From a bacterium (GTDB taxonomy: Bacteria; Babelota; Babeliae; Babelales; RVW-14), in NCBI GenBank assembly GCA_043822925.1, contig JBDRBF010000073.1, positions 1 through 14,402 on the forward strand: a DNA stretch of 14,402 nucleotides, read 5' to 3'. A program made the translations under genes and the position numbers. Positions 664 to 13,422 of the stretch are shown here, piece by piece. The notes under the pieces are model-generated. The model did no database searches. It was not told where the DNA came from and saw nothing but the letters and a program-made list of their open reading frames with translations. How positions within the stretch are numbered: the stretch's first letter is position 1; each line of letters begins with the position of its first letter.

Positions 664-3600
664 TCACCAACCACTACTTTCATCAACGTTTGGTTTTATA
701 ACCACTTCTTCGCATACAACGTCTATACCATGAGCCAGCTGAGCAACCTGCCCGGCAAGCGCCACTTTGCCTTCACGCGTGAGCTCCTCGCTTTTTTCAA
801 GCAGTAGCATCTTTATATCTTTTGCCATTTGCGTCTGAAATCCAGGCTCCTCTGGCAAAAGATAGGCGTTTCCAGAATCAGGCCATCCCCAATCGTTTGC
901 CTCATTTTGCGCCCCAACATAAACACCGGTAGCCTTGCTCAACGCCTTTGCCAGATCAGCCGCAAAGGAATACACTCGCAAATCTTCTTTATGCGAATCT
1001 ATCGCGAACTTAGCAGCTGCAAACGCCCTAACATACGCAATCTTTTTATTAATTAAATCGAACACAATCTCTTTTGCCAAATCAAACTTTTTATGTTTTA
1101 TCAACTCTGATGCAAACTCAGAGAATATTTGATTAAAATCTTTTTTCGCATTAAACAAAGCTCGTTTTTTAACGTTTTCTTCATTTTGAGCAAATTTTTC
1201 TCCAAGAACTGGTTTGGCCTGGGCAACAAACGCATCCACATCTACAGCTCCCTGGGCCTGAACAGCCGCCTCATCTAGTTTTCCCAGAACCTCTTTAATC
1301 TTAGCTTCAGGATATTCGCGTACAATTATCGGAACAAAATCATTCAAAAACACGGGCAATTGCGCAAGAAATTTTTTCGGCAAAAGTTCATCCATAAATA
1401 CTTTAATTTCTCCCTCAGAAAATAGTTTTTTAGCGAGCGGCACAAAAACATCAAAAAAACCTGGATTTGCCGATACCAACAATGCCCAATCATGCATAAA
1501 TTCTGATAATTTACTTTTAACAAACGCTTGATAATCTCCATCTTTTTTAGCCAAAACATCAAGCCCCTTCATCACCAGGTCCGGCATAGCCCTGACAAGC
1601 TGTTTATTTTTAAATAATTCTTCTACCAGAACAAACGCTGCTGAACGCGATTCTTCAATCTCTAATAACAAACATAGTTTTGATAACAAATAACGTGATA
1701 AAAAAAGCGTGTCAGTCCCAATCTTCTTAGTTACCTCAAGGTCTTCATGCTTCATACCACTTTCGATATTTAATGGATAATTAAATTGAGCATCTTTTAA
1801 GAGACTTAATTTAATGCCATTAAGAGCCTCTTTATACTTAGTTGCTCCTATAAAAGCATCTACAAAAAAGGCGCTACAAAAAAGATCATTCAAGAAAAAC
1901 TGGTCCGGAACGGCCAATTTTTCAAATAAAGTAAAAACTTGATCGGCGCCAACCCACTTGTAATCATGGTCACGATATAGACCTAGGCCTTTCCCCCATT
2001 TTTTACCACTCATTTTATTAACAGTATCAAGCATCTTAATAGAGCGGACAAAAGCCCCCATTGTCATCTGTGCAAACGCTCTAAGATATTTCACCAAAAT
2101 ATCAAGATCACTTTTTTCGTCCAAAATCCACGAAAAAGTCGTAACCAAACCAGCTTGCCTGCCCTGAGCAACACCCGTAACTGCCGGTGGTTTTGCAAAC
2201 ACAAAGCCCGATGCAAGCGCCGCAAGATTCGCATACCCACCAAGCGCATACATTCTGTTATACTCGTTGTGCCCCATAAACACGGGTGACAAGACGGCCT
2301 GATGCTCTTTATTCGTATTATATAAAAGACTAAACGTTACACTATGTTGGCGCAGCACCAAATTGTAATTCAAGCGCATATACGGATAATTATAATCAAC
2401 CCCGACAAGCGTTGCATACGTCATTCGCCCCTCATGCTCATCATACGAACTCACTTCGCGCAATTTCGCAGATACTTTTTGAATAAAATCTGGCAACCCG
2501 GCCTCAGAAATACCAATCTGCTTATGTAACGTAGAAATAATAACTAAAATATTTTGGTGCATTAACGTAAACAAATCTTCAAGCGACACAGGCAAAGCAC
2601 GGGCAAAATCAACCTTGCTCCCAAGCGCAGCAGCCGCAACTGAAAATGTTGACGTCGCATTTAAATAAGATTCTTTTGGCTCCTGATAGCGTTTCATAAA
2701 AATTTCGCGTATTTTTTTGAGATATTGTTCAAACGGCCAATTCCAATCTTGGCGATTCAGCTCAACCAGCATCAGCTTCTTTTCCATTACTTTCTGGTCA
2801 TCATCGATCGCCGCAACCCACTGCTCCATAAGCATCAAGTACCCAACAAGTACCTGCGCAAAGCGTACAACCTGGTCCTGTTTCTTGTCTTTATACGCAG
2901 GACTACCAGTCAGGCCCTTAATTGATTTATCATACACGTCGACTATTTTTTTCAAAAAGCCCAAAAGAACCAACTTGCCCAGCTCGCCCGTATTTTTGAA
3001 TCTTGTTATAAGCGGTGCATATTTAGTTAAAACAAACGCTTTTAAATCTTTATAATCTAATGGCGGCACCTTTTTGCCTTGCCAATTCTGCCAAAACGCC
3101 TCGTTTGAAGCCACGAAAATAAACAAAAATTGTTTTGAAAACTCAGTATACAATTTCGTAAATTTCGCAGGATCACCCCATTGCTCAATCCTGTTTTGCC
3201 AGGTCTCAAGAATATGTCCATTTTCTTGAACCCACGAGATAACTTCTTTATTAGCATAATATTCTTCTACCAAATCAAAAGCACAAGCGTGAGACCGAAT
3301 TGATATCTCTTTATCTTTATTTTTTTCCCACGCTTTAATAAAAGACGAATTAATCCAGACTCCAAGAACACCAAATTCTTGCAAACGGGCAACAACCAAC
3401 GCAAGATGCTTAATCGCTTGAGACACGTTTCTGAAATTTTGCTCAAACTTCTGTCCCGGCAATCTTGTTTCAGATAAACCGTTTAAAAACGTTTGCCAAT
3501 TTTTTTTAATATCTTCACGCAATATGAGTTTATCGGCCTTCATGAGGTCACGGACATACTCCCGGGACTCAGCCCCAAATTTTCCCGTTATTTTTTCCCC

Positions 3601-5937
3601 GGCAATCTCGTCATCTTTTTGCTCTTTTAAGAGATCACCAAGCGAAAATCCTGAAACCATGTCTAACGTTGCCTGTTGATAAATTATCGCTTCTAAAAAC
3701 TTGATCGCATATAAGCGTAATAAACGTGCCTGCCCCGTGCTCATGTTCTTAGTTTCTTCAAATATGTGCAAAATTTCTACGGCGCTACACACAACCCCCA
3801 AATACACAAGAGCCGCTTGCCCCAATACATCTTTAGGCTGCAAAAGAGATGCTGCGCGATAAACTATGCACTTGAGCGCGCCAAGAACATCTTCTTTTTT
3901 TTCCCCCGCTTTAATACGTCTCAACAAAGCCCCAACCGAAACTTTTTTGTCATCTTGATCTTTCTTTTTATCCCAGGCAAGCTCGACAAAATTTGCTTCA
4001 AAAGTGTCTTTATTGCGTGTCTTAAATAATTCTAAAAAATCTGGAATAAGTGATATTTTGCGTGGTATTGGATGGGTGTACCAGCCTTCATAAATAAATT
4101 CTTTTCTTTTCACGCTATCTTTAAGTAATTCTTTATCCTGCGCACGTGCTTTGACGGCCAGTGCGCGCTGCATATCACATAACACGCACGCCTGCCCCTC
4201 ACTCAGCCACGCTTTTATTGTGTCACACTGGTCGCCAGAAAAGACAAGCACCGGAATACCATAACTACGGAACGTCGTTGCTTCATGTGATGTTGACGGA
4301 GCCATCTCTTTGACAATTACGGCTTTAATCTCACGTCTATTTGTTTCAGGGGCATCATGAATTCTGAGCGCCTGCGGCAACGTATCGGTCATAATAATCT
4401 GGCCTATTGTTTCTACCAGACGTACATACCCACCAGCTATACCAATACTTTCACCGCTCACAACATGCGCTGCTTGGTCAGGCAGGCCGTTAAGATACAT
4501 GTCTGTAATATAGTCTTGTATGCGTTCTTGTTTACGCTGCACAACGGGCCGCGCTTGGACAAAATAAATCTTATTTTCACGCTTATTAACCACAAATTCT
4601 ATGTCTTGTGGATAGTCATAAAATGTTTCTACTTCGTCGGCAATTAATTTAAGATCAAGCACCAAATCTGGCCCAATCGCAGGTTTTTCCCGAGTTTCTT
4701 TCTTATTATCAACAAATTCAAGCGCATATTTTTTTTGAGGCGCGTACTTAACACCAGGCTCAAATTTTTCCTGATTTTCTTTTGAAACCAAACGCTTTGT
4801 TTTCTTGCGAACTATGGGATGTATCAAACCTATCTTGCCTGAACCAGCGTGCGCCCAAATATAATACGTATCGACGGGCACAAGACTATTAACAACAGCC
4901 TCGTTATGTCCGTATGTTGCCTGTATTTGGGTTACGCCAGGCGTATTGCCCTCCGCTTCCCGGGTAAACATAACCCCAGAAACCGGGATATCTTTTTCTT
5001 CTGGTTGCGTGCCATCCCATATACGTTCGCCAATCATGCATTGAATAAGAACCGGCATAAATGGTTCTTTTTGCAGCTCTGTTTTTATCGCATCTATTAT
5101 TTCGTTTTCTTGTTTCTTCTCGTTTTGAGCAGCCGAGCGTGTAGAAAGAAGCCTTTGGGAAAAAGATTTCTCCCCAAAATATGACGCTACTACTTCACCG
5201 ATGGCACGCCATATTTCAACAAGTTCTGGACGCACTGCAGCTATTGTTTCATTGCCACCGGCATTGGCCAGCTCTTTTGTATCTTCTCTGCCCGTACTTC
5301 TAACCATTAATAACGCGCCTGTTTGTTTGATATCAAGAGAGGCTAAAAAAGCACCTAACTGCTCGACTAAATCTTGGGAGTCTTGGCCCAAATTTTCTTC
5401 TATTTTTTTTTCGCTGTGCACGTTAAAAGCATCTCTAATACTTATTTGTATCTCTTTAAGAACAAGCAGCGCATCAGGGGCCAAACCAGGTTCTTTTTTT
5501 TGTTTTATTTGTTCATCAATAAATGTAATTTGTTTTTTAACAAATTCTTGCCATTTTTCATCCAAACTCACGCCTATTTTTGAACCAATAGTACGCTCAA
5601 AATTTACTGCTATATATTTTTTAATTTTCGTATCACTTATAGCAAAAAATTCTGGCACGGCTAACTCAAAACCAGTTTTAGATGCTTTTGCTAATTTTTT
5701 ATTAACATCTTTTGCCAGCGTATGCAAAACAGACAAATGAGTTGTCTTGTTTCCATACTGCTTTGAAAAATCGTCAAAGCTCCCTTTTTTTTCCGTAACA
5801 AGATCCCCCTGCTCAAACGTTGGTAAAACAAAATTACCTAACTCTTTGTAAAAATCTCCCCCATACCCATTTGGCCCCAAGAGCATAAATACGAGACCTA
5901 AAAACAGAAAAATGCCCAAACGACGCGATATGCGCAT
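664..5937 (-). CDS. Large exported PEP-synthase/PPDK-family dikinase-like protein (ATP-grasp PEP/pyruvate-binding domain, phospho-His swivel domain, long unrecognised C-terminus)
   Basis: 1757-aa ORF with RBS GGAG (5947-5944). Signal-peptide-like N-terminus MRISRRLGIFLFLGLVFMLLGPNGYG. PPDK_N motifs: YGNK, VPEFFAI, LMVRSTGRED..ANAGGNET (~aa 210-230), PVLIQCMI, SGVMFT, ATYGHNEAVV, PQDIEFVV, IYFVQARP (~aa 461). Swivel motif STSHEATTFRSYGIPVLV with His551 (codon 4287-4285). Confidence 0.85.
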   Translation of the reverse strand: MRISRRLGIFLFLGLVFMLLGPNGYGGDFYKELGNFVLPTFEQGDLVTEKKGSFDDFSKQYGNKTTHLSVLHTLAKDVNKKLAKASKTGFELAVPEFFAISDTKIKKYIAVNFERTIGSKIGVSLDEKWQEFVKKQITFIDEQIKQKKEPGLAPDALLVLKEIQISIRDAFNVHSEKKIEENLGQDSQDLVEQLGAFLASLDIKQTGALLMVRSTGREDTKELANAGGNETIAAVRPELVEIWRAIGEVVASYFGEKSFSQRLLSTRSAAQNEKKQENEIIDAIKTELQKEPFMPVLIQCMIGERIWDGTQPEEKDIPVSGVMFTREAEGNTPGVTQIQATYGHNEAVVNSLVPVDTYYIWAHAGSGKIGLIHPIVRKKTKRLVSKENQEKFEPGVKYAPQKKYALEFVDNKKETREKPAIGPDLVLDLKLIADEVETFYDYPQDIEFVVNKRENKIYFVQARPVVQRKQERIQDYITDMYLNGLPDQAAHVVSGESIGIAGGYVRLVETIGQIIMTDTLPQALRIHDAPETNRREIKAVIVKEMAPSTSHEATTFRSYGIPVLVFSGDQCDTIKAWLSEGQACVLCDMQRALAVKARAQDKELLKDSVKRKEFIYEGWYTHPIPRKISLIPDFLELFKTRNKDTFEANFVELAWDKKKDQDDKKVSVGALLRRIKAGEKKEDVLGALKCIVYRAASLLQPKDVLGQAALVYLGVVCSAVEILHIFEETKNMSTGQARLLRLYAIKFLEAIIYQQATLDMVSGFSLGDLLKEQKDDEIAGEKITGKFGAESREYVRDLMKADKLILREDIKKNWQTFLNGLSETRLPGQKFEQNFRNVSQAIKHLALVVARLQEFGVLGVWINSSFIKAWEKNKDKEISIRSHACAFDLVEEYYANKEVISWVQENGHILETWQNRIEQWGDPAKFTKLYTEFSKQFLFIFVASNEAFWQNWQGKKVPPLDYKDLKAFVLTKYAPLITRFKNTGELGKLVLLGFLKKIVDVYDKSIKGLTGSPAYKDKKQDQVVRFAQVLVGYLMLMEQWVAAIDDDQKVMEKKLMLVELNRQDWNWPFEQYLKKIREIFMKRYQEPKESYLNATSTFSVAAAALGSKVDFARALPVSLEDLFTLMHQNILVIISTLHKQIGISEAGLPDFIQKVSAKLREVSSYDEHEGRMTYATLVGVDYNYPYMRLNYNLVLRQHSVTFSLLYNTNKEHQAVLSPVFMGHNEYNRMYALGGYANLAALASGFVFAKPPAVTGVAQGRQAGLVTTFSWILDEKSDLDILVKYLRAFAQMTMGAFVRSIKMLDTVNKMSGKKWGKGLGLYRDHDYKWVGADQVFTLFEKLAVPDQFFLNDLFCSAFFVDAFIGATKYKEALNGIKLSLLKDAQFNYPLNIESGMKHEDLEVTKKIGTDTLFLSRYLLSKLCLLLEIEESRSAAFVLVEELFKNKQLVRAMPDLVMKGLDVLAKKDGDYQAFVKSKLSEFMHDWALLVSANPGFFDVFVPLAKKLFSEGEIKVFMDELLPKKFLAQLPVFLNDFVPIIVREYPEAKIKEVLGKLDEAAVQAQGAVDVDAFVAQAKPVLGEKFAQNEENVKKRALFNAKKDFNQIFSEFASELIKHKKFDLAKEIVFDLINKKIAYVRAFAAAKFAIDSHKEDLRVYSFAADLAKALSKATGVYVGAQNEANDWGWPDSGNAYLLPEEPGFQTQMAKDIKMLLLEKSEELTREGKVALAGQVAQLAHGIDVVCEEVVIKPNVDESSGW

Positions 5938-5974: not shown

Positions 5975-7234
5975 CTACAAAATAGAACACTGAGATGATT
6001 GCTTCATGCTCCGTGCAAAAAGCTCAAGCGCTTTAAAATAATTCTTCTCCATTTTTTTATCTTTTTGCTTTCGTACATGTCTAAAAATTTTAATCCCACT
6101 GGCCGGGTTATGAAAAACGTTTGGCGCCAAGTAAATTCTCACCTGCAAACGATCTAAAGCACACGCCAAAGAATAATAATTACACGGGGCATACAAAAAC
6201 GCCTTTTCTCTGTCTTTTTTATACAAATTTAAAAATTCAGCTACCGTTATTTCACTCTCTTTGTCATATAATTTATACGGGCATTCATGTCTCTTTTCAC
6301 AAAAAACATCATCACACGCAGTACAATCAGCATGAAGTCTTATTTTTTTTACCAATAAACTTTTACCACCACACCCACCGGGGTCAGCATTCCACACATA
6401 CTTATTAGTTTTGCTCACTGGAATAAAAACTTGAATCATCCAATTATCATCATAACTGAGATATTTTTTAATTGGATTACGAGAATCAGACCCTTCTATC
6501 ATTTTCAAAAGCTTTACCCCATGCGTAGGGAAATAATCACCCAAGCCAAAAAAATCAAATACTTCTTTTAAAACGCTACTCGTACTTAAACTCCCCATTA
6601 AACGTTGCGCCCCGCCACCTATATTTGGAACAAGAAAATAATTCATAGGACATTCAGATGGACAACTACAAGCACACGTAAACGGTGTTGGCCCGGCTGA
6701 AAGACATAATTTACGTGAAATGGCTCCTCCATCAAAATGTTTCCCCGCACTTATAAGCTCATCAACATTGGCATAATCCTTAAACTCTTTGTATGGAATC
6801 CGCAGTATGGCCAAGTCTTCCGGCAGATCAATCTCAAAAAAAACTTTCAAAAAAACACGCATAACATCTTGAATAAAAATATAAAATGCATGCGTACCAT
6901 GATAAAAAACATGATGCGTTTTTCCATAAAAATTTTCTAATTTTGCAAAACGTTTTACAACATCTTCAAAAAATTTATCTTGAGGCAACTTCACATCAAA
7001 TTTATGGTCATATTTTTTTTCAGCATAATAATCAGTTACTTTTCGAAAAAAAGCATCAAGAAACGCATGCGTCTCTTTTCCATTTCTTAAATAAGCCCCT
7101 GTTTGCGTATATGGCTCAAAATAGTCTGTCATTTCAGATGCATCGTTAAAAGCAAAACAAGTACAAAAATTAAAAACGATCACGCCCAATAAAGACCAGA
7201 ATATTTTCTTTAAAAATAAAATATTATTTACCAT
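5975..7234 (-). CDS. Exported Cys-rich hypothetical protein with FYHGT motif (possible ADP-ribosyltransferase-like fold)
   Basis: 419-aa ORF with a G-rich RBS (GGCGGGGG on the minus strand, ~7249-7242) and a hydrophobic N-terminus KKIFWSLLGVIVFNFCTCFA. VFYHGT at ~aa 109-114. Contains 15 Cys, including CACSCPSEC and CTACDDVFCEKRHEC. It ends 37 bp before the dikinase start, so the two are likely co-transcribed. The CDS is well supported; the function is speculative. Confidence 0.75.
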   Translation of the reverse strand: MVNNILFLKKIFWSLLGVIVFNFCTCFAFNDASEMTDYFEPYTQTGAYLRNGKETHAFLDAFFRKVTDYYAEKKYDHKFDVKLPQDKFFEDVVKRFAKLENFYGKTHHVFYHGTHAFYIFIQDVMRVFLKVFFEIDLPEDLAILRIPYKEFKDYANVDELISAGKHFDGGAISRKLCLSAGPTPFTCACSCPSECPMNYFLVPNIGGGAQRLMGSLSTSSVLKEVFDFFGLGDYFPTHGVKLLKMIEGSDSRNPIKKYLSYDDNWMIQVFIPVSKTNKYVWNADPGGCGGKSLLVKKIRLHADCTACDDVFCEKRHECPYKLYDKESEITVAEFLNLYKKDREKAFLYAPCNYYSLACALDRLQVRIYLAPNVFHNPASGIKIFRHVRKQKDKKMEKNYFKALELFARSMKQSSQCSIL

Positions 7235-7340: not shown

Positions 7341-7423
7341 GGCTTTATAAGAAAACATATTTAGGCAAAACAATTATAAGCTTTTTAGCCTCACTTTTTT
7401 TCGTTCTTTATCAAACTATTGCA

Positions 7424-7493
7424 TTCCAAACCTCAGACTTATACGCTTATAATTGGTCCAAAGAGATCACAATAGTTAGTAATAATAGGGGAG
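7424..7493 (+). promoter_or_regulatory. Candidate promoter and ribosome-binding site of the small Cys-rich ORF
   Basis: Perfect TATAAT at 7448-7453 with a weak -35 TTCCAA at 7424-7429 (18-nt spacer). Strong Shine-Dalgarno AGGGGAG at 7487-7493, 7 nt before ATG7501. Confidence 0.55.
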
Positions 7494-7500
7494 CTAGACT

Positions 7501-7677
7501 ATGTGCGGAAATTCGAAAAAAAGTGGCTGTGAGAGCATAAAAAACACAGGTATAAAAAAATGCACCTGCGATAAATCTTGCAACTGCGCATGTAGCGGCT
7601 GCAAATGCAGCCCTACAAAAAAAACAAGCTCTAACTGTACATGCTGCGTCAAAACCGCTTGTAAATCATGCAAATAA
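7501..7677 (+). CDS. Metallothionein-like small Cys/Lys-rich protein (58 aa), absent from the supplied ORF track
   Basis: Manual translation: MCGNSKKSGCESIKNTGIKKCTCDKSCNCACSGCKCSPTKKTSSNCTCCVKTACKSCK*. 14 Cys (24%) in CxC, CxxC and CC arrangements, 12 Lys, no aromatic residues, no His. Strong SD upstream. Stop TAA at 7675-7677. Confidence 0.8.
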   Translation: MCGNSKKSGCESIKNTGIKKCTCDKSCNCACSGCKCSPTKKTSSNCTCCVKTACKSCK

Positions 7678-7686
7678 CTCTACTAC

Positions 7687-7708
7687 GCCCTACGTGGCTT
7701 CGAAGGGC
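7687..7708. repeat. Short GC-rich palindromic hairpin after the metallothionein-like gene
   Basis: GCCCT-a-CG (7687-7694) pairs with CG-a-AGGGC (7701-7708) around a 6-nt loop. There is no U-tract, so it is not a classical terminator. Confidence 0.45.
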
Positions 7709-7760
7709 AGGCAAGACATATGACAACAACAATAACCAACATATAAAGTAAGAAACGTAT

Positions 7761-8975
7761 ATGAAGATCAAAATACTCTTCGTGTACCTATCAGTACTTG
7801 CAAGTCTTACACTTGCAAGTACCATCACATATTATAAATTCTTCAAAAAAGCACCCCCAAAGCTTTTTACAACAACTATGCCCAAGCTCAAAGCAATCTC
7901 TCAAAACGTTTCAGCTTCCGGCATATTAAGTATTAAAAATCCAATCAAAATAGGTAGTTTGGTCTCAGGCACCGTAAAAGAACTATATGTAACTGAAAAC
8001 CAATTTGTCAAAAAAGGTGACGTACTAGCTATAATAGATCCCGGTACCAGCGACACAGAATTCCAAAAAGCCTTTTATGAACATGAAAAAACACGCAAAG
8101 AATTTGAATACACAAAAAACAATTTTGAACGTAAGAAAAAATTATATCAAGCAAACCAACTATCTAAAGATGAGTATGAACGGCTCAGTAAAGAGCTAGA
8201 TATTACTGAGTTAAATCTTAAAAAAGCAAAGATTAACTTAGAAAAAGAACAACTATACCTTAACAATAGAAAAATAGTTGCAATCCAAGACGGTTTTATA
8301 ACAGCCGTTAATACCACAAAAGGCGCCGGAGTTTCAGGTGTAGAGGTATCCAACAGTTGCTCAGAACTCTTTATTATTGCTCCTAATATTACCCAAATGG
8401 AAGCAAAACTCGATATTGATGCCAGCGATATTGGGTTAATTAAACCAGATCTTCCAGTAAGTTTTACCGTCAGCACATACCCAGACAAAGTTTCTTACAC
8501 CAAAATACGCGATATTGGCTTTTCACCTAAAATATCAAACGATTCAGCTTTCTATAAAGCAAGCGTCGACATAGACAACGAAACACAATTGTTTAGACCA
8601 GGCATGACAATACATGCAAAAATTAAAGTCGCTAAATCAAAAAGTACATTATGTATTAACGGCATAGCGTTCCAAATTAATGGCAAAATGTTAGAAAAAA
8701 TCGCCAAGCAATTAGAATACAACTACCAACCAATAAAAAAAAGATCAAAAAAAGAATATAGAAATTCCCGTGCAAACCAACGGGTTAAAACCGTCTGGAT
8801 AGAACAAGACAAAAACTTTATCGAAAAACAAGTAATCTTAGGCATTACTGATAATAATTATTTTGATTTTGAAATACTTGAAGGACTAACAGCTAACGAC
8901 AAAATTATTATTGATATTGTCGAAGACGACGTCATGCAGAATATATATAAGAAATGGTTCAAGGGCCCACTATAA
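7761..8975 (+). CDS. MacA-like membrane-fusion/periplasmic adaptor subunit (copy 1)
   Basis: N-terminal TM anchor; lipoyl half-motif IGSLVSGTVKELYVTENQFVKKGDVLAIID; coiled-coil hairpin; IVAIQDGFI; VSFTVSTYPD; FRPGMT; VILGITD...EILEGL. Confidence 0.92.
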   Translation: MKIKILFVYLSVLASLTLASTITYYKFFKKAPPKLFTTTMPKLKAISQNVSASGILSIKNPIKIGSLVSGTVKELYVTENQFVKKGDVLAIIDPGTSDTEFQKAFYEHEKTRKEFEYTKNNFERKKKLYQANQLSKDEYERLSKELDITELNLKKAKINLEKEQLYLNNRKIVAIQDGFITAVNTTKGAGVSGVEVSNSCSELFIIAPNITQMEAKLDIDASDIGLIKPDLPVSFTVSTYPDKVSYTKIRDIGFSPKISNDSAFYKASVDIDNETQLFRPGMTIHAKIKVAKSKSTLCINGIAFQINGKMLEKIAKQLEYNYQPIKKRSKKEYRNSRANQRVKTVWIEQDKNFIEKQVILGITDNNYFDFEILEGLTANDKIIIDIVEDDVMQNIYKKWFKGPL

Positions 8976-8987
8976 GAAAGAGCCCCG

Positions 8988-10217
8988 ATGAACACCAGAA
9001 TACTTATTCGTAACTCTCTACGTAACTTGAGCCACCATAAAGTTCGTTCTTTTTTAACAATTTTGGGAATAATAGTAGGAATAGCATCTGTTATCGCAAC
9101 GCTGGCAATCGGCTACGGGACCGAACAAAAATTACGCCAAAAAATAATGTCCATGGGATGTAATTATATAGAACTCTGGGCCGGCAATTCTTTTGCTGAA
9201 GGCGCATCAGCCGTCACTAAACGCACAAATTCTTCACGATTATCGCTCGATGACGTAAAACTTTTCAAAACACTTTTTCCCGCGATTAAGCACATTACGC
9301 CGTTTTTTCATAGTCGCACAAACACTGAATTTCAAACAAACTCAATTAAAGGCCAAGTTAAAGCAGGCAACCAAAATTTTTTTTCTGTTATCGGCAGATC
9401 AATAAAACACGGTCACTTCTTTAATTATTATCAGGTGCAAAAAGGCGCCCGCGTGGTCGTACTCGGGCACAAAGCAGCAAAAGAACTTTTCAGATCACTC
9501 GACCCTATCGGCCAAATCGTTATGATAAAAAAAATCCCATTCACCGTAATTGGAATAGCAAAAAAAATTGAAAATTTTTTTGGAATACATGACCCTAATC
9601 TTGAAATTTTCGTGCCGTTCACGACGTTTAATAGATATATATCCCCAGATGCAAGCAAATTTGTACACGGCATCATCATATCTTCTTACTCGACAGAATC
9701 TATGCCTCAAGTCGTCAAACAAATAAGAAAAAACTTGCGCATGCGCCATAACCTAAAATTACGCGAACCGGACGACTTCACGATTATCGACCAAGAATCA
9801 ATGCTCAAAGCAGCAAAAGACTCTTCTTCTGTCTTTAATTTGTTTTTATTTATCGTCGCATCTATATCACTTATTGTTGGCGGCATAGGCGTCATGAACA
9901 TCATGCTCGTCTCAGTATCTGAACGCTCACAAGAAATCGGCATCCGTATGGCTCTTGGCGCCTGTGAACGTCTTATTTTACGCCAATTTCTAATCGAATC
10001 AGTAACATTATGCTTTGTCGGTGGCATTATTGGGATTATTTTGGGAATAATCGCCCCTCTACTGGCCAATTACTTTGCCGGATTTCCGGTTGTCATTAAC
10101 ATACAAACTATTTTCGCTGCATTTGTGACGATCTTCCTAGTTGGGCTCTCGTTTGGCTTCTACCCAGCTTATAAAGCATCTCGGCTTAACCCGGTTGAAG
10201 CGATCAACAGCCATTAA
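8988..10217 (+). CDS. MacB/FtsX-family ABC transporter permease (copy 1)
   Basis: RSFLTILGIIVGIASVIA TM1, a large periplasmic domain, the signature SISLIVGGIGVMNIMLVSVSERSQEIGIRMALGA, and C-terminal FGFYPAYKASRLNPVEAI. Confidence 0.95.
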   Translation: MNTRILIRNSLRNLSHHKVRSFLTILGIIVGIASVIATLAIGYGTEQKLRQKIMSMGCNYIELWAGNSFAEGASAVTKRTNSSRLSLDDVKLFKTLFPAIKHITPFFHSRTNTEFQTNSIKGQVKAGNQNFFSVIGRSIKHGHFFNYYQVQKGARVVVLGHKAAKELFRSLDPIGQIVMIKKIPFTVIGIAKKIENFFGIHDPNLEIFVPFTTFNRYISPDASKFVHGIIISSYSTESMPQVVKQIRKNLRMRHNLKLREPDDFTIIDQESMLKAAKDSSSVFNLFLFIVASISLIVGGIGVMNIMLVSVSERSQEIGIRMALGACERLILRQFLIESVTLCFVGGIIGIILGIIAPLLANYFAGFPVVINIQTIFAAFVTIFLVGLSFGFYPAYKASRLNPVEAINSH

Positions 10218-10240
10218 ACCACGTTAAGACGCGTGAAAAT

Positions 10241-10270
10241 TTGCAAATCTCAAAAAAAAAGTGCTAAACT
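10241..10270 (+). promoter_or_regulatory. Internal sigma70 promoter for the second exporter module
   Basis: TTGCAA (10241-10246), an 18-nt spacer containing A9 (10252-10260), then extended -10 TGcTAAACT (10262-10270). RBS AGGGA at 10308-10312 before ATG10323. Confidence 0.6.
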
Positions 10271-10322
10271 TGGACAAGAGCGTTAAATCCTACACATTCT
10301 TGCAATTAGGGAAACAAAAACA

Positions 10323-11519
10323 ATGATAATAAGCAAAAAAATTCTTTTGGCCACTATTTTTCTCGGCGCAGTAGCCGGCATATTCTTAATCATGAAATCA
10401 AAAAAAAACAAAACCGTACAACCAGTATATTCAACTGAAAAACCAACACGACGAAATCTCGTTCAAAAAATAACTGCCTCAGGAACACTTAAAGCAGAAG
10501 AGCAAATTTCAGTCGGCAGCTTAATGGACGGAAAAATAGACAAGATTCTAGTCGAAGATAATGACACGGTAAAAAAAGACCAAGTACTCGCAATTATTGA
10601 TAACGGAATCGGCGACACAAGCATAAAAAAATTAAAAGCTACGCTCAAGAATATGCGTGCTCAACTTGAGTATCAAAAGAAATTTTATGAACGCCAGAAG
10701 TTTTTATTCGAATCTGGACAAATAGCTCAAGATACATACGATCGCTATACACGTGACTACATATCAGCCCAAGCAACGGTAGAACAAACACAAGCTGATC
10801 TAGAGCAAGAAGAAAAAAATTATAATAATTTGTTTATCAAAGCCCCCGTAGATGGCATTGTTATTGCAAAAAATATAGACTTGGGTCAAATGATCGCCGC
10901 TAAATTCCAAGCCACAACGCTCTTTCACCTGGCTAAAGACCTAAAAAAAATGGAAGCCAGACTCGATGTTGACGAAGCAGATGTAGGCATGGCAAAAGAT
11001 AATCAACCAGCAAGTTTTACCGTAGATGCATTCCCAAACAGAAAATTCAAATCAAAAATAAAAAGAATTCAGTACATGTCCAAAACAGCCGAAGGCGTCA
11101 TATCATACGCAACTTTTTTGGACATAGAAAATAAAGACATGTCACTCAGACCAGGCATGACGGTTAACGTTGAAATCAAAGTTTCAAAAAGCAAAAATGC
11201 GTTAAACGTTCCTAATAAAGCATTTCGTATAAACGGGCTCAAGCTAGAAGATTATGCAAACTCAGTCAGCATCCCGTTTGAAAAATTGCCAGAAAAAAAA
11301 CCAGGCGAAATTCGTCCTCACCATAAAATCTTTGTTCTTGATGGCAAAACAATCAAAGAGACAGCCGTCTCGCTTGGCACAAATAACGGCCAATATACTG
11401 AAATCTTAGAAGGCATCACCGAACAATCAAACGTGATAACAGAATTTCTTGAACCCAAAGGCGAAAATTTACTCTTAAAAGGTATGATGGGCGGCATGGG
11501 CGGCGGAGTTGGAAAATAA
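10323..11519 (+). CDS. MacA-like membrane-fusion/periplasmic adaptor subunit (copy 2)
   Basis: TM anchor; ITASGTL; VGSLMDGKIDKILVEDNDTVKKDQVLAIID; IKAPVDGIVI; VDEADVG; FTVDAFP; LRPGMTVNVEI; VPNKA. The stop overlaps the next start (TAATG at 11517-11521). Confidence 0.93.
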   Translation: MIISKKILLATIFLGAVAGIFLIMKSKKNKTVQPVYSTEKPTRRNLVQKITASGTLKAEEQISVGSLMDGKIDKILVEDNDTVKKDQVLAIIDNGIGDTSIKKLKATLKNMRAQLEYQKKFYERQKFLFESGQIAQDTYDRYTRDYISAQATVEQTQADLEQEEKNYNNLFIKAPVDGIVIAKNIDLGQMIAAKFQATTLFHLAKDLKKMEARLDVDEADVGMAKDNQPASFTVDAFPNRKFKSKIKRIQYMSKTAEGVISYATFLDIENKDMSLRPGMTVNVEIKVSKSKNALNVPNKAFRINGLKLEDYANSVSIPFEKLPEKKPGEIRPHHKIFVLDGKTIKETAVSLGTNNGQYTEILEGITEQSNVITEFLEPKGENLLLKGMMGGMGGGVGK

Positions 11520-12205
11520 TGAAAACACTAGTAGCTAAAAATCTTATCAAGACGTACAAAATGGGCGAAACAACCGTTAACGCCCTGCGTGGTATAAATC
11601 TTGAAATTGAAAAGGGCGAATTTGTTGCCATCACCGGAACATCTGGATCAGGTAAATCAACGTTCATGCACCTTCTTGGGTGCCTGGACGTGCCAACAGA
11701 AGGTGAGTACTTTATCGATGGCACTAATGTTGCACACGCAACACGAGATGAACTGGCTGGCATTAGAAACAAAAAAATTGGTTTTGTATTTCAAAAGTTT
11801 CACCTATTGCCAGACTTAACCATTCTTGACAACGTCGCACTACCAATGCTTTATGCTGGGCACTCAGAAGCAACCGCACGCAAACGAGCCGCTGAATTAT
11901 TAACGATGGTCGAACTGGGTAACCGTATGGACCACTATCCATACCAAATTTCCGGTGGCCAACAACAACGTGTCGCGATCGCCCGGTCACTTATTAATGA
12001 CCCAAGTATTTTACTTGCAGACGAACCAACCGGTAACTTAGACTCGGCAACAGGGCTGGTAATTCTTGCACTATTTAAGAAGCTTAATGAAGAAAACGGC
12101 GTAACTATTATTTTAGTTACACATGAACCATCAGTTGCAGCTAAAGCAAAACGAATCGTTGAACTTGTTGATGGTTCTATTAAATCAGACAGAAAGACCT
12201 CATGA
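11519..12205 (+). CDS. ABC transporter ATP-binding protein (MacB/LolD-type NBD)
   Basis: Walker A GTSGSGKST, Q-loop GFVFQKFHLL, signature ISGGQQQRVAIAR, Walker B/D-loop LLADEPTGNLD, H-loop VTHE. ATGA overlap with the next gene. Confidence 0.97.
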   Translation: MKTLVAKNLIKTYKMGETTVNALRGINLEIEKGEFVAITGTSGSGKSTFMHLLGCLDVPTEGEYFIDGTNVAHATRDELAGIRNKKIGFVFQKFHLLPDLTILDNVALPMLYAGHSEATARKRAAELLTMVELGNRMDHYPYQISGGQQQRVAIARSLINDPSILLADEPTGNLDSATGLVILALFKKLNEENGVTIILVTHEPSVAAKAKRIVELVDGSIKSDRKTS

Positions 12206-13422
12206 ATTTATACATGCTTATGGCCAGCGCAATGCGCTCGCTCAGAAACCACAAAGTTCGTTCATTACTGACAACGCTAGGTATTATTATCGGTATCGTA
12301 GCTATTATTTGCGTTATGTCGATCGGCGAAGGCGCCAAACAAAGAGTAAATAAAGAAATCGAAAAATTAGGTACAAATTTTATTATCGTTCTTTCTGCGT
12401 CTCAAAAACGCATGGCTTCACGCGGTCACCCTGGCGAAGCAATTTTTACGCCACAAGATCTCGCTACTATCCGAACAGAAGCAACCGACGTTGATATGGT
12501 ATCACCCGGTAACATTGCACCATTAAAAATTACTGCCGAAAATAAATCATGGGACACCAATATTGGCGGTGTCGAGGAAAACTACCTTGATATCCGTCAA
12601 TGGAAACTAATAATGGGCACTTTTCTCACCAACCAAGATGTAAAAGCACAAAGCAAAGTCGCAGTACTTGGCATCACCGTAGCCAACGAACTATTTGGAA
12701 AAGACAAAAATCCAATCGGACAAACAATTCGCATCAAAAAGATCCCATTTAAAATTATCGGTGTACTTGAAGAAAAAGGCAAATCGCCTGACGGCAGAGA
12801 TCAAGATGACACAGTCTTTATCCCTATAACAACACTCGCTCACCGCCTACAAGGAAAAAAACTAAAATACTTTGCACTTATTTGCCAGGCAAAAAGCAAA
12901 GAACGCATACGTAATGCTGAAGAACAAATTCGCTCAATTATTCGCCAAAAACATAATGTAAACGACAAACAAGAAGATAATTTTACCATTTTTACCCAGG
13001 ATGATATTTCTCAAGCAAGCGATGCTGCAACAAAGATTTTAAACATACTCTTAATGGTCGTCGCTTCTATATCGCTTCTTGTCGGTGGCATAGGAATCAT
13101 GAATATCATGCTTGTTACCGTTACTGAACGAACACGAGAGATTGGCATACGCATGGCACTGGGCGCAACCACAAGCAATATTTTGACGCAATTTCTTTTG
13201 GAATCGATAACCATCTGCCTGGCCGGAGGCTCACTGGGAGCTCTTGCTGGGGTGGCTATGTCAAAATTTGTTGGAATCGCTCTAGGCTGGTCGATTTTTA
13301 TATCAAAAACATCTGTAATTGTTTCACTATTCTCATCTATGTTAATTGGCCTATTTTTTGGCTTTTATCCTGCACACAAAGCATCAATGCTCAACCCCGT
13401 TGACGCACTGGCCGATAAATAG
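12202..13422 (+). CDS. MacB/FtsX-family ABC transporter permease (copy 2)
   Basis: RSLLTTLGIIIGIVAII; DQDDTVFIP; ASISLLVGGIGIMNIMLVTVTERTREIGIRMALGA; FFGFYPAHKASMLNPVDAL. Confidence 0.95.
   Translation: MNLYMLMASAMRSLRNHKVRSLLTTLGIIIGIVAIICVMSIGEGAKQRVNKEIEKLGTNFIIVLSASQKRMASRGHPGEAIFTPQDLATIRTEATDVDMVSPGNIAPLKITAENKSWDTNIGGVEENYLDIRQWKLIMGTFLTNQDVKAQSKVAVLGITVANELFGKDKNPIGQTIRIKKIPFKIIGVLEEKGKSPDGRDQDDTVFIPITTLAHRLQGKKLKYFALICQAKSKERIRNAEEQIRSIIRQKHNVNDKQEDNFTIFTQDDISQASDAATKILNILLMVVASISLLVGGIGIMNIMLVTVTERTREIGIRMALGATTSNILTQFLLESITICLAGGSLGALAGVAMSKFVGIALGWSIFISKTSVIVSLFSSMLIGLFFGFYPAHKASMLNPVDALADK

Follow-up and report, generated by a model that had tools for sequence, protein, structure and literature searches.

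Does the intergenic DNA upstream of macA in a Babelales genome hide a real gene, and if it does, what would a product made up largely of cysteine and lysine do in the cell? The window, that is, the whole stretch of DNA analysed, is an entire 14.4-kb contig (14,402 nt) of a draft genome, labelled G000 (1.52 Mb, 37% G+C, 92% complete, 86 contigs). The open reading frame in question lies on the plus strand at 7501-7677, within the 526-nt gap between a divergent minus-strand gene (5975-7234; 419 aa, no family match) and macA (7761-8975, plus strand). An earlier note, made from the sequence alone, had read this frame as a metallothionein gene of eukaryote-like type, acquired from a eukaryotic host or evolved convergently. 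We compared the locus with all three genomes of the sister genus, g7 (G006, G020 and G041), and with G014, the sister genome of G000.

The coding sequence runs from an ATG at 7501 to a TAA at 7675-7677 and encodes a 58-aa peptide, MCGNSKKSGCESIKNTGIKKCTCDKSCNCACSGCKCSPTKKTSSNCTCCVKTACKSCK, with 14 Cys, 12 Lys (21% of residues), one Asp, one Glu and no His, Phe, Tyr or Trp, exactly as the earlier note had quoted it. The cysteines occupy positions 2, 10, 21, 23, 27, 29, 31, 34, 36, 46, 48, 49, 54 and 57. Most fall into C-x-C units (C21-x-C23, C27-x-C29-x-C31, C34-x-C36 and C46-x-C48), accompanied by a CC pair (48-49) and by C54-x-x-C57. Cys, Ser and Thr together make up 29 of the 58 residues, and the metal-free peptide should have a net charge of about +10.

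Such a composition is exceptional in G000. Cysteine accounts for 24% of the small gene's product and for 1.3% of codons in the 657 long ORFs of the genome. The six reading frames contain 5,890 open stretches of 50-80 codons; nine of these have at least 20% Cys, and the small gene is unique in combining at least 12% Cys with no F, Y, W or H. When the 12,506 start-to-stop ORFs of at least 30 aa are sorted by Cys fraction, it comes fifth; the four ORFs above it are rich in Phe, Trp and Arg and resemble off-frame products. TGC encodes ten of its 14 cysteines, compared with 40% genome-wide (P = 0.017), and is the majority Cys codon in each g7 relative as well (9 of 13-14), a preference that may reflect selection on translation. 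By inspection, the first 20 residues (MCGNSKKSGCESIKNTGIKK) are hydrophilic and include no N-terminal hydrophobic segment, and a cytosolic location therefore fits. AlphaFold, run on a four-row alignment, gave no confident model (mean pLDDT 40.6, no secondary structure); this outcome is compatible with a peptide that would fold only upon metal binding and does not discriminate between readings.

The earlier note had suggested that a genuine gene should recur upstream of macA orthologues in related genomes, with conserved Cys spacing and synonymous substitutions. We inspected 30 macA loci from 30 genomes, up to 1.5 kb upstream of each, and found frames of this kind on the macA strand in G020 (49 aa, 14 Cys) and G006 (48 aa, 13 Cys). 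With the homologue in G041, all three g7 genomes carry an ATG frame of 48-49 aa with 13-14 Cys. The four peptides share ten invariant Cys columns, five of which switch between TGC and TGT, and a common core, C-[KT]-C-[DNT]-K-[KS]-C-[KN]-C-x-C-[NS]; all terminate in C-K-stop. The G000 peptide lacks three N-terminal cysteines of the g7 peptides and has extra ones in a 12-residue insert and in its CC pair, so that the Cys total is kept at 13-14 despite shifted positions and Cys content across the family is 24-29%. Tyr 3 of G020 and G041 is the only His or aromatic residue in the g7 peptides.

The pattern of substitution is that of a protein-coding sequence. Between G020 and G041, 20 of 150 nt differ, distributed 3/3/14 over the codon positions, and dN/dS is 0.06 (13.8 synonymous and 6.2 replacement changes; dS 0.95). 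The ratio is 0.11-0.14 for G006 against G020 and G041 and 0.19-0.46 for G000 against g7, with synonymous distances across the family of 0.95-3.0. Since an antisense frame shares the wobble position and is stop-free in two of the genomes (G000 and G006), the frames were compared directly: the G020-G041 substitutions produce 11 silent and 5 replacement codons in the plus frame and 6 silent and 10 replacement codons in the best other frame, the antisense one. A profile HMM built from the four peptides returned its members with E-values of 9e-15 to 7e-20 among the 261 genomes of the order, where the next best row stood at 0.0196. Eight of the 15 weak rows beyond the members have in-frame stops, and the frames behind the weak rows in G014, G204 and G004 proved not to be Cys-rich. 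Judged by this pattern of change, 7501-7677 is a real protein-coding gene under purifying selection.

The signals around the gene were conserved to different degrees. The strong Shine-Dalgarno sequence that the earlier note had pointed out, AGGGGAG, is present at 7487-7493 (plus strand), 7 nt before the ATG, and the relatives have purine-rich GGAAGGAAG or AAAGGGAAAA at this position. The TATAAT that had also been pointed out is indeed there (7448-7453, plus strand), but it has no -35 element at 16-18 nt and is not conserved in the three relatives. The element that is conserved across the four genomes is instead a promoter-like box immediately upstream, TTGCAT-N17-TACGCT at 7419-7447 on the plus strand (TTGCAT at 7419-7424, TACGCT at 7442-7447). 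In the four-genome DNA alignment TTGCATTC and TAC(C/G)CT are invariant or near-invariant, and the flanks barely align between the genera; the arrangement TTGCAT-N17/18-TAC(C/G)CT stands upstream of all four family genes. The idea that TTGCATTC is simply a common genomic motif was rejected, as it was seen 38 times in G000 with about 60 expected, and the combined box motif occurs four times in that genome. A promoter consensus scan did not list the box at 7419-7447; from its conservation and position, we infer that it would function as a promoter. In G000, TTGCAT-N16-18-TAnnnT occurs 106 times and TTGACA-N16-18-TAnnnT 57 times, an excess that may indicate a preference of the lineage for TTGCAT-type -35 elements or may reflect only base composition. 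At two g7 loci (L007 420-490 and L008 1075-1145) a perfect hairpin of 12-13 bp followed by a T-run overlaps the -10-like TACCCT of the box. It could be the terminator of the upstream ankyrin gene or an operator palindrome, and it is absent in G000.

Downstream of the gene, a GC-rich hairpin with a T-run, seen by eye, follows the stop codon immediately in G020 and G041. The 84 nt between the stop of the small gene and the start of macA in G000 contain no terminator-like site. They do contain a hairpin-forming dispersed repeat of 36 nt (7680-7715, plus strand), outside the small gene and without a T-run after it, of which G000 has five copies at up to five mismatches; unrelated metagenome contigs match this repeat alone and then diverge from the window. 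A promoter consensus scan placed a promoter-like site at 7720-7749, macA's own. On the basis of the frame-specific substitutions, the SD-like sites, the conserved box and the hairpin with T-run after the stop, we conclude that the small gene is a real gene that appears to be separately transcribed, at least in g7.

The neighbouring operon is context for the gene. It is a MacAB-type efflux operon by Pfam and NCBIfam (7761-13422, plus strand), in the order adaptor (MacA-like, 7761-8975), permease, adaptor, ABC ATPase and permease. The link to macA that the earlier note had drawn holds in part: three of the four carriers (G000, G006 and G020) have the small gene no more than about 1 kb upstream of macA, but in the fourth, G041, it is 12 kb away, and at 26 of the 30 macA loci the upstream DNA, examined for up to 1.5 kb, contains no such ORF. 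In G020 another gene intervenes before macA, and within g7 the small gene precedes different genes. The operon's first adaptor has a match in 33 of the bacterial family's 35 genomes, the small gene in four. Its neighbours in g7 are ankyrin-repeat genes, not metal genes, and the 419-aa gene upstream in G000 is not related to these upstream ankyrin genes. Elsewhere in the window, a 1757-aa protein (664-5937, minus strand), in which nothing is recognised except a PEP-utilising (PPDK_N) ATP-binding domain spanning residues 88-473, and a dual-specificity phosphatase-like gene at the contig start (2-586, plus strand) are possible host-directed proteins.

Metal genes adjoin the family at one locus. 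In G041 the small gene and its ankyrin gene are separated from macA by an 11-kb block with six genes on the minus strand (L266, G041:C23, 3142-14205). Two of the products are a copper-type P1B ATPase (TIGR01525, 540 bits against a cut-off of 346) and a CusA/CzcA pump (1043 bits against a cut-off of 701); the other four are a LOG-family protein, a Ca-type P-ATPase, a CusB-like adaptor and a TolC-like protein. The block looks like an acquired metal-efflux island and is absent from G000, G006, G020 and G014. We take it as one weak pointer to metals, because it occurs in one carrier of four and also includes the Ca-type ATPase and the LOG-family gene, so that its adjacency may be due to chance. 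No metal-sensing regulator adjoins the small gene at any of the four loci. In the 92%-complete G000 we found no P1B ATPase above the family cut-off, no CusA and no ArsR/SmtB helix-turn-helix protein; its two P-type ATPases are of Mg and Ca types, and its two MerR-family proteins have no cysteine and are therefore not CueR/ZntR-like.

To follow the family further, we scanned the 261 genomes of the order with a degenerate DNA motif encoding C-x-C-x-K-x-C-x-C-x-C. Matches occurred in 16 genomes, compared with two for the reversed control. Four of these are the family members (G000, G006, G020 and G041) and six have no in-frame start; the rest are one 4-aa frame and five unlike ORFs. The family is thus found in four of 261 genomes. 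The same scan over one genome per species for 185,579 species, a set that may omit records near G000, yielded at least 119 loci and 25 motif-spanning ORFs, none of the family among the matches listed, and JGI metagenome contigs yielded 83 loci and 28 ORFs, again none of the family.

Several mini-ORFs came to light in this survey. Two Actinomadura genomes (L135 262-342; L123, at the end of the frame 1045-1542) carry a near-identical Gly/Cys-rich frame of 26 residues with seven Cys, beginning MT(Q/S)GGCSC and finishing GCSCGCNG, which is probably another small metallothionein-like gene. A cattle-gut Bacilli MAG has a Lys-rich 33-aa frame with nine Cys (L134 289-390). This locus, with L180 226-321 and L174 1180-1578, forms a set that also includes a 31-aa, 12-Cys frame in a seawater contig and a 132-aa, 29-Cys protein with C-x-C repeats and a signal-peptide-like N-terminus.

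Protein-level searches returned nothing beyond the family itself. A single-sequence phmmer search against 41 relatives gave the self match alone as significant. The 58-aa peptide in a word-indexed search of 5.8 billion clusters, and the four-sequence profile against protein clusters of near and longer lengths, produced nothing at E up to 1, and an exhaustive phmmer search of 1.84 billion representative proteins gave no match. None of the four peptides is present in a collection of 15 billion proteins, while the neighbouring MacA is found letter for letter in the ESM Atlas; gene callers therefore missed the small gene, in line with the earlier note's expectation that annotation pipelines would usually do so. 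Among the sequencing runs matching the stretch no RNA run is listed. Contigs of four DNA runs from four studies (groundwater, biofilm and subsurface) cover parts of it; as this cover is thin and almost invariant, it offers nothing usable for population-level selection.

In a tree of 24 MacA sequences (FastTree, midpoint-rooted, single gene), G000 pairs with G014 and both adjoin g7 in one clade with a support of 0.998. G014 (93% complete) lacks the small gene, both in the 696 nt available upstream of macA and genome-wide by motif and profile. The simplest history would be a single origin at the base of the clade followed by one loss or assembly gap. As far as searched, all carriers belong to one small clade within a bacterial family with small genomes and many ankyrin genes. 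The small genomes of the relatives and the ankyrin-repeat genes beside the homologues would fit Dependentiae, a phylum whose members parasitise protists from within.

How does the peptide relate to known metallothioneins? Pfam returned no family at E up to 0.01 for the window peptide or up to 10 for any of the four peptides, and NCBIfam gave no match of any kind for the 58-aa peptide; because HMMER's composition correction works against such sequences, these non-matches mean that homology is not detectable, and they do not disprove it. Membership of the bacterial SmtA/BmtA family (PF02069, Metallothio_Pro) was rejected: there is no profile match, and a PDB search with the family profile at E up to 10 returned no chain, 1JJD included. 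The earlier note had set the peptide apart from this type for its want of His and aromatic residues, and we agree. What the two have in common is that both are bacterial, cytosolic, about 50-60 aa long, Cys-rich, with more Lys than Arg, and presumed to be metal-thiolate buffers; they differ in that the 58-aa peptide has no His and no aromatics, and for the same reason a zinc-finger-like fold with His ligands is not expected. In Table 1 of PMC13578184, canonical bacterial metallothioneins have about 16% Cys, compared with 24-29% in the family described here.

The resemblance to eukaryotic metallothioneins (vertebrate, fungal Cu-thionein, ciliate and insect) lies in small size, dominant C-x-C units, Lys beside Cys and the lack of His and aromatics. 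It is a likeness of composition and motif only: none of the eukaryotic metallothionein families (PF00131, PF02067, PF02068 and others) matched any of the four peptides at E up to 10, and the PDB searches are equally silent, the single-sequence one giving no metallothionein and two non-metallothionein chains at E 0.31 and 0.52. An insect metallothionein cluster (PF02067) ranked seventh in the ESM Atlas with a score of 0.81, which falls short of the 0.9 bar and makes it no more than a lead. With no homology to eukaryotic metallothioneins detected, 'eukaryote-like' describes the composition of the peptide and nothing more. The proposed acquisition from a eukaryote thus found no backing in the Pfam and PDB searches, and the ORF has a G+C content of 40% in a genome of 37%.

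The closest case, by analogy of circumstance, would be MymT of pathogenic mycobacteria, which PMC7558416, in its account of Gold et al. 2008, describes as the product of a non-annotated small ORF and a Cu(I) metallothionein required for copper resistance. Both are Cys-rich peptides of about 5 kDa from ORFs that annotation had missed, in bacteria living inside eukaryotic cells, with a proposed role in metal stress. MymT, however, is induced by copper and has been measured to bind metal, whereas the family here is known from sequence and is compared with MymT by description. In the accounts given in PMC7558416 and PMC13578184, experimentally accepted bacterial metallothioneins are few, chiefly SmtA/BmtA relatives and MymT. 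Our literature search found no paper joining 'Dependentiae' and 'metallothionein', and none describing the family. Judged by these comparisons, the family is undescribed and belongs to no known family.

We favour, with modest confidence, the reading that the small gene encodes a new, narrowly distributed metallothionein-like peptide, a metal-thiolate buffer of the cytosol. This reading rests on the composition, the C-x-C motifs, the lack of a signal peptide or of modification enzymes, and the Cu-ATPase/CusCBA block in G041. In size, Cys content, absence of aromatics and Cys motifs, and with its conservation in four genomes, the predicted product corresponds to the operational definition of a metallothionein. 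The peptide would be cytosolic, basic and intrinsically unfolded, and its 14 cysteine thiolates, mostly in C-x-C runs, would wrap several soft metal ions, with Cu(I), Zn(II) or Cd(II) as candidates, into metal-thiolate clusters whose charge the lysines beside the cysteines would offset. At the Cys-to-metal ratio of classical metallothioneins, 14 cysteines would hold about 4-5 divalent ions, or more of Cu(I). In this role the peptide would buffer surplus metal within the bacterium, or serve as its sink, and might protect against metal stress from the host or the environment. Selection on cluster-forming capacity would produce just the pattern seen in the family, a constant Cys total with shifted positions.

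Cys-rich basic peptides may have roles other than metal storage. The peptide might chiefly supply thiols that buffer the redox state during oxidative bursts, or store cysteine or sulfur for an auxotrophic parasite, or bind DNA or RNA through its lysines, with disulfides or zinc as cross-links in a resting stage. The charge of the peptide (12 Lys against one Asp and one Glu) and the want of a conserved metal regulator or metal gene beside it would suit such roles, and PMC7558416 credits accepted metallothioneins with oxidative-stress defence as well. We nevertheless consider these roles unlikely, as conserved C-x-C spacing and a conserved Cys total are needed by metal-thiolate clusters, not by a redox buffer or a sulfur store, and nothing in our analysis points to nucleoid binding. 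Somewhat more doubtful is an exported peptide, which would either be transported by the MacAB-type pump or act on the host as an effector released along with the ankyrin-repeat proteins encoded nearby. It would account for the position of the gene 84 nt upstream of the MacA/MacB-type operon in G000, where no terminator-like site was found in between, and within about 1 kb of macA in G006 and G020, and for the ankyrin-repeat genes on its flanks in g7. It sits poorly, however, with an N-terminus in which inspection shows neither a signal peptide nor a recognisable leader, with macA's own promoter-like site, with the hairpin and T-run after the small gene in G020 and G041, where an extra gene (G020) or 12 kb (G041) follows before macA, and with the presence of macA in 33 of 35 family genomes against four for the peptide gene.

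Two further explanations fare worse. We regard it as very improbable that the frame is no protein gene at all, whether because low-complexity DNA left it open by chance, because it mirrors a gene on the other strand, or because it encodes no more than a Cys-rich leader peptide that regulates downstream transcription. The wobble-sharing antisense frame is open throughout in G000 and G006, the peptide is absent from the protein databases and no RNA run is listed; against this stand the plus-frame excess of silent changes (11/5 against 6/10) and the conservation of ATG, SD and stop in four genomes of two genera at the synonymous distances given above. The antisense frame has no conserved start and is interrupted by a stop in G020 and G041, and 48-58 codons with fixed Cys spacing, ahead of different downstream genes in g7, are unlike amino-acid-sensing leaders. 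A RiPP precursor of the lanthipeptide, thiazole/oxazole or radical-SAM type would make sense of the high share of Cys, Ser and Thr (half of the residues) and of an ABC exporter with adaptor nearby, and yet it is extremely improbable: no modification enzyme is conserved beside the gene at the four loci, LanC-like, YcaO and SPASM domains were not found anywhere in the 92%-complete G000, and, as Cys spans residues 2 to 57, the peptide has no leader-core organisation. The metallothionein-like buffer therefore remains the reading that we prefer.

Amoebae poison ingested bacteria with zinc and copper, as PMC5770829 and bioRxiv 10.1101/356949 set out, so that an intracellular parasite would plausibly need a metal buffer. 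A bolder version, speculative and in our view rather unlikely, is that a clade of obligate intracellular protist parasites evolved, or captured beyond recognition, a His-free metallothionein of eukaryotic style. G000, in which we found no P1B ATPase, no HME-RND pump, no ArsR and no MerR sensor with cysteines, would then rely on it as its chief protection from soft metals; alternatively, it would be released with ankyrin-repeat effectors to tamper with the zinc and copper pools of the host.

Four conserved genes that are absent from a collection of 15 billion proteins mark a blind spot, and the way in which they came to light matters too: standard single-sequence HMMER searches found none of the relatives, whereas the DNA motif and the family profile did. 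If the metallothionein-like reading is true, a His-free, aromatic-free family with 24-29% Cys in a host-dependent lineage would widen the picture of bacterial metallothioneins, and it would offer a testable handle on how reduced intracellular bacteria withstand metal poisoning by amoebae.
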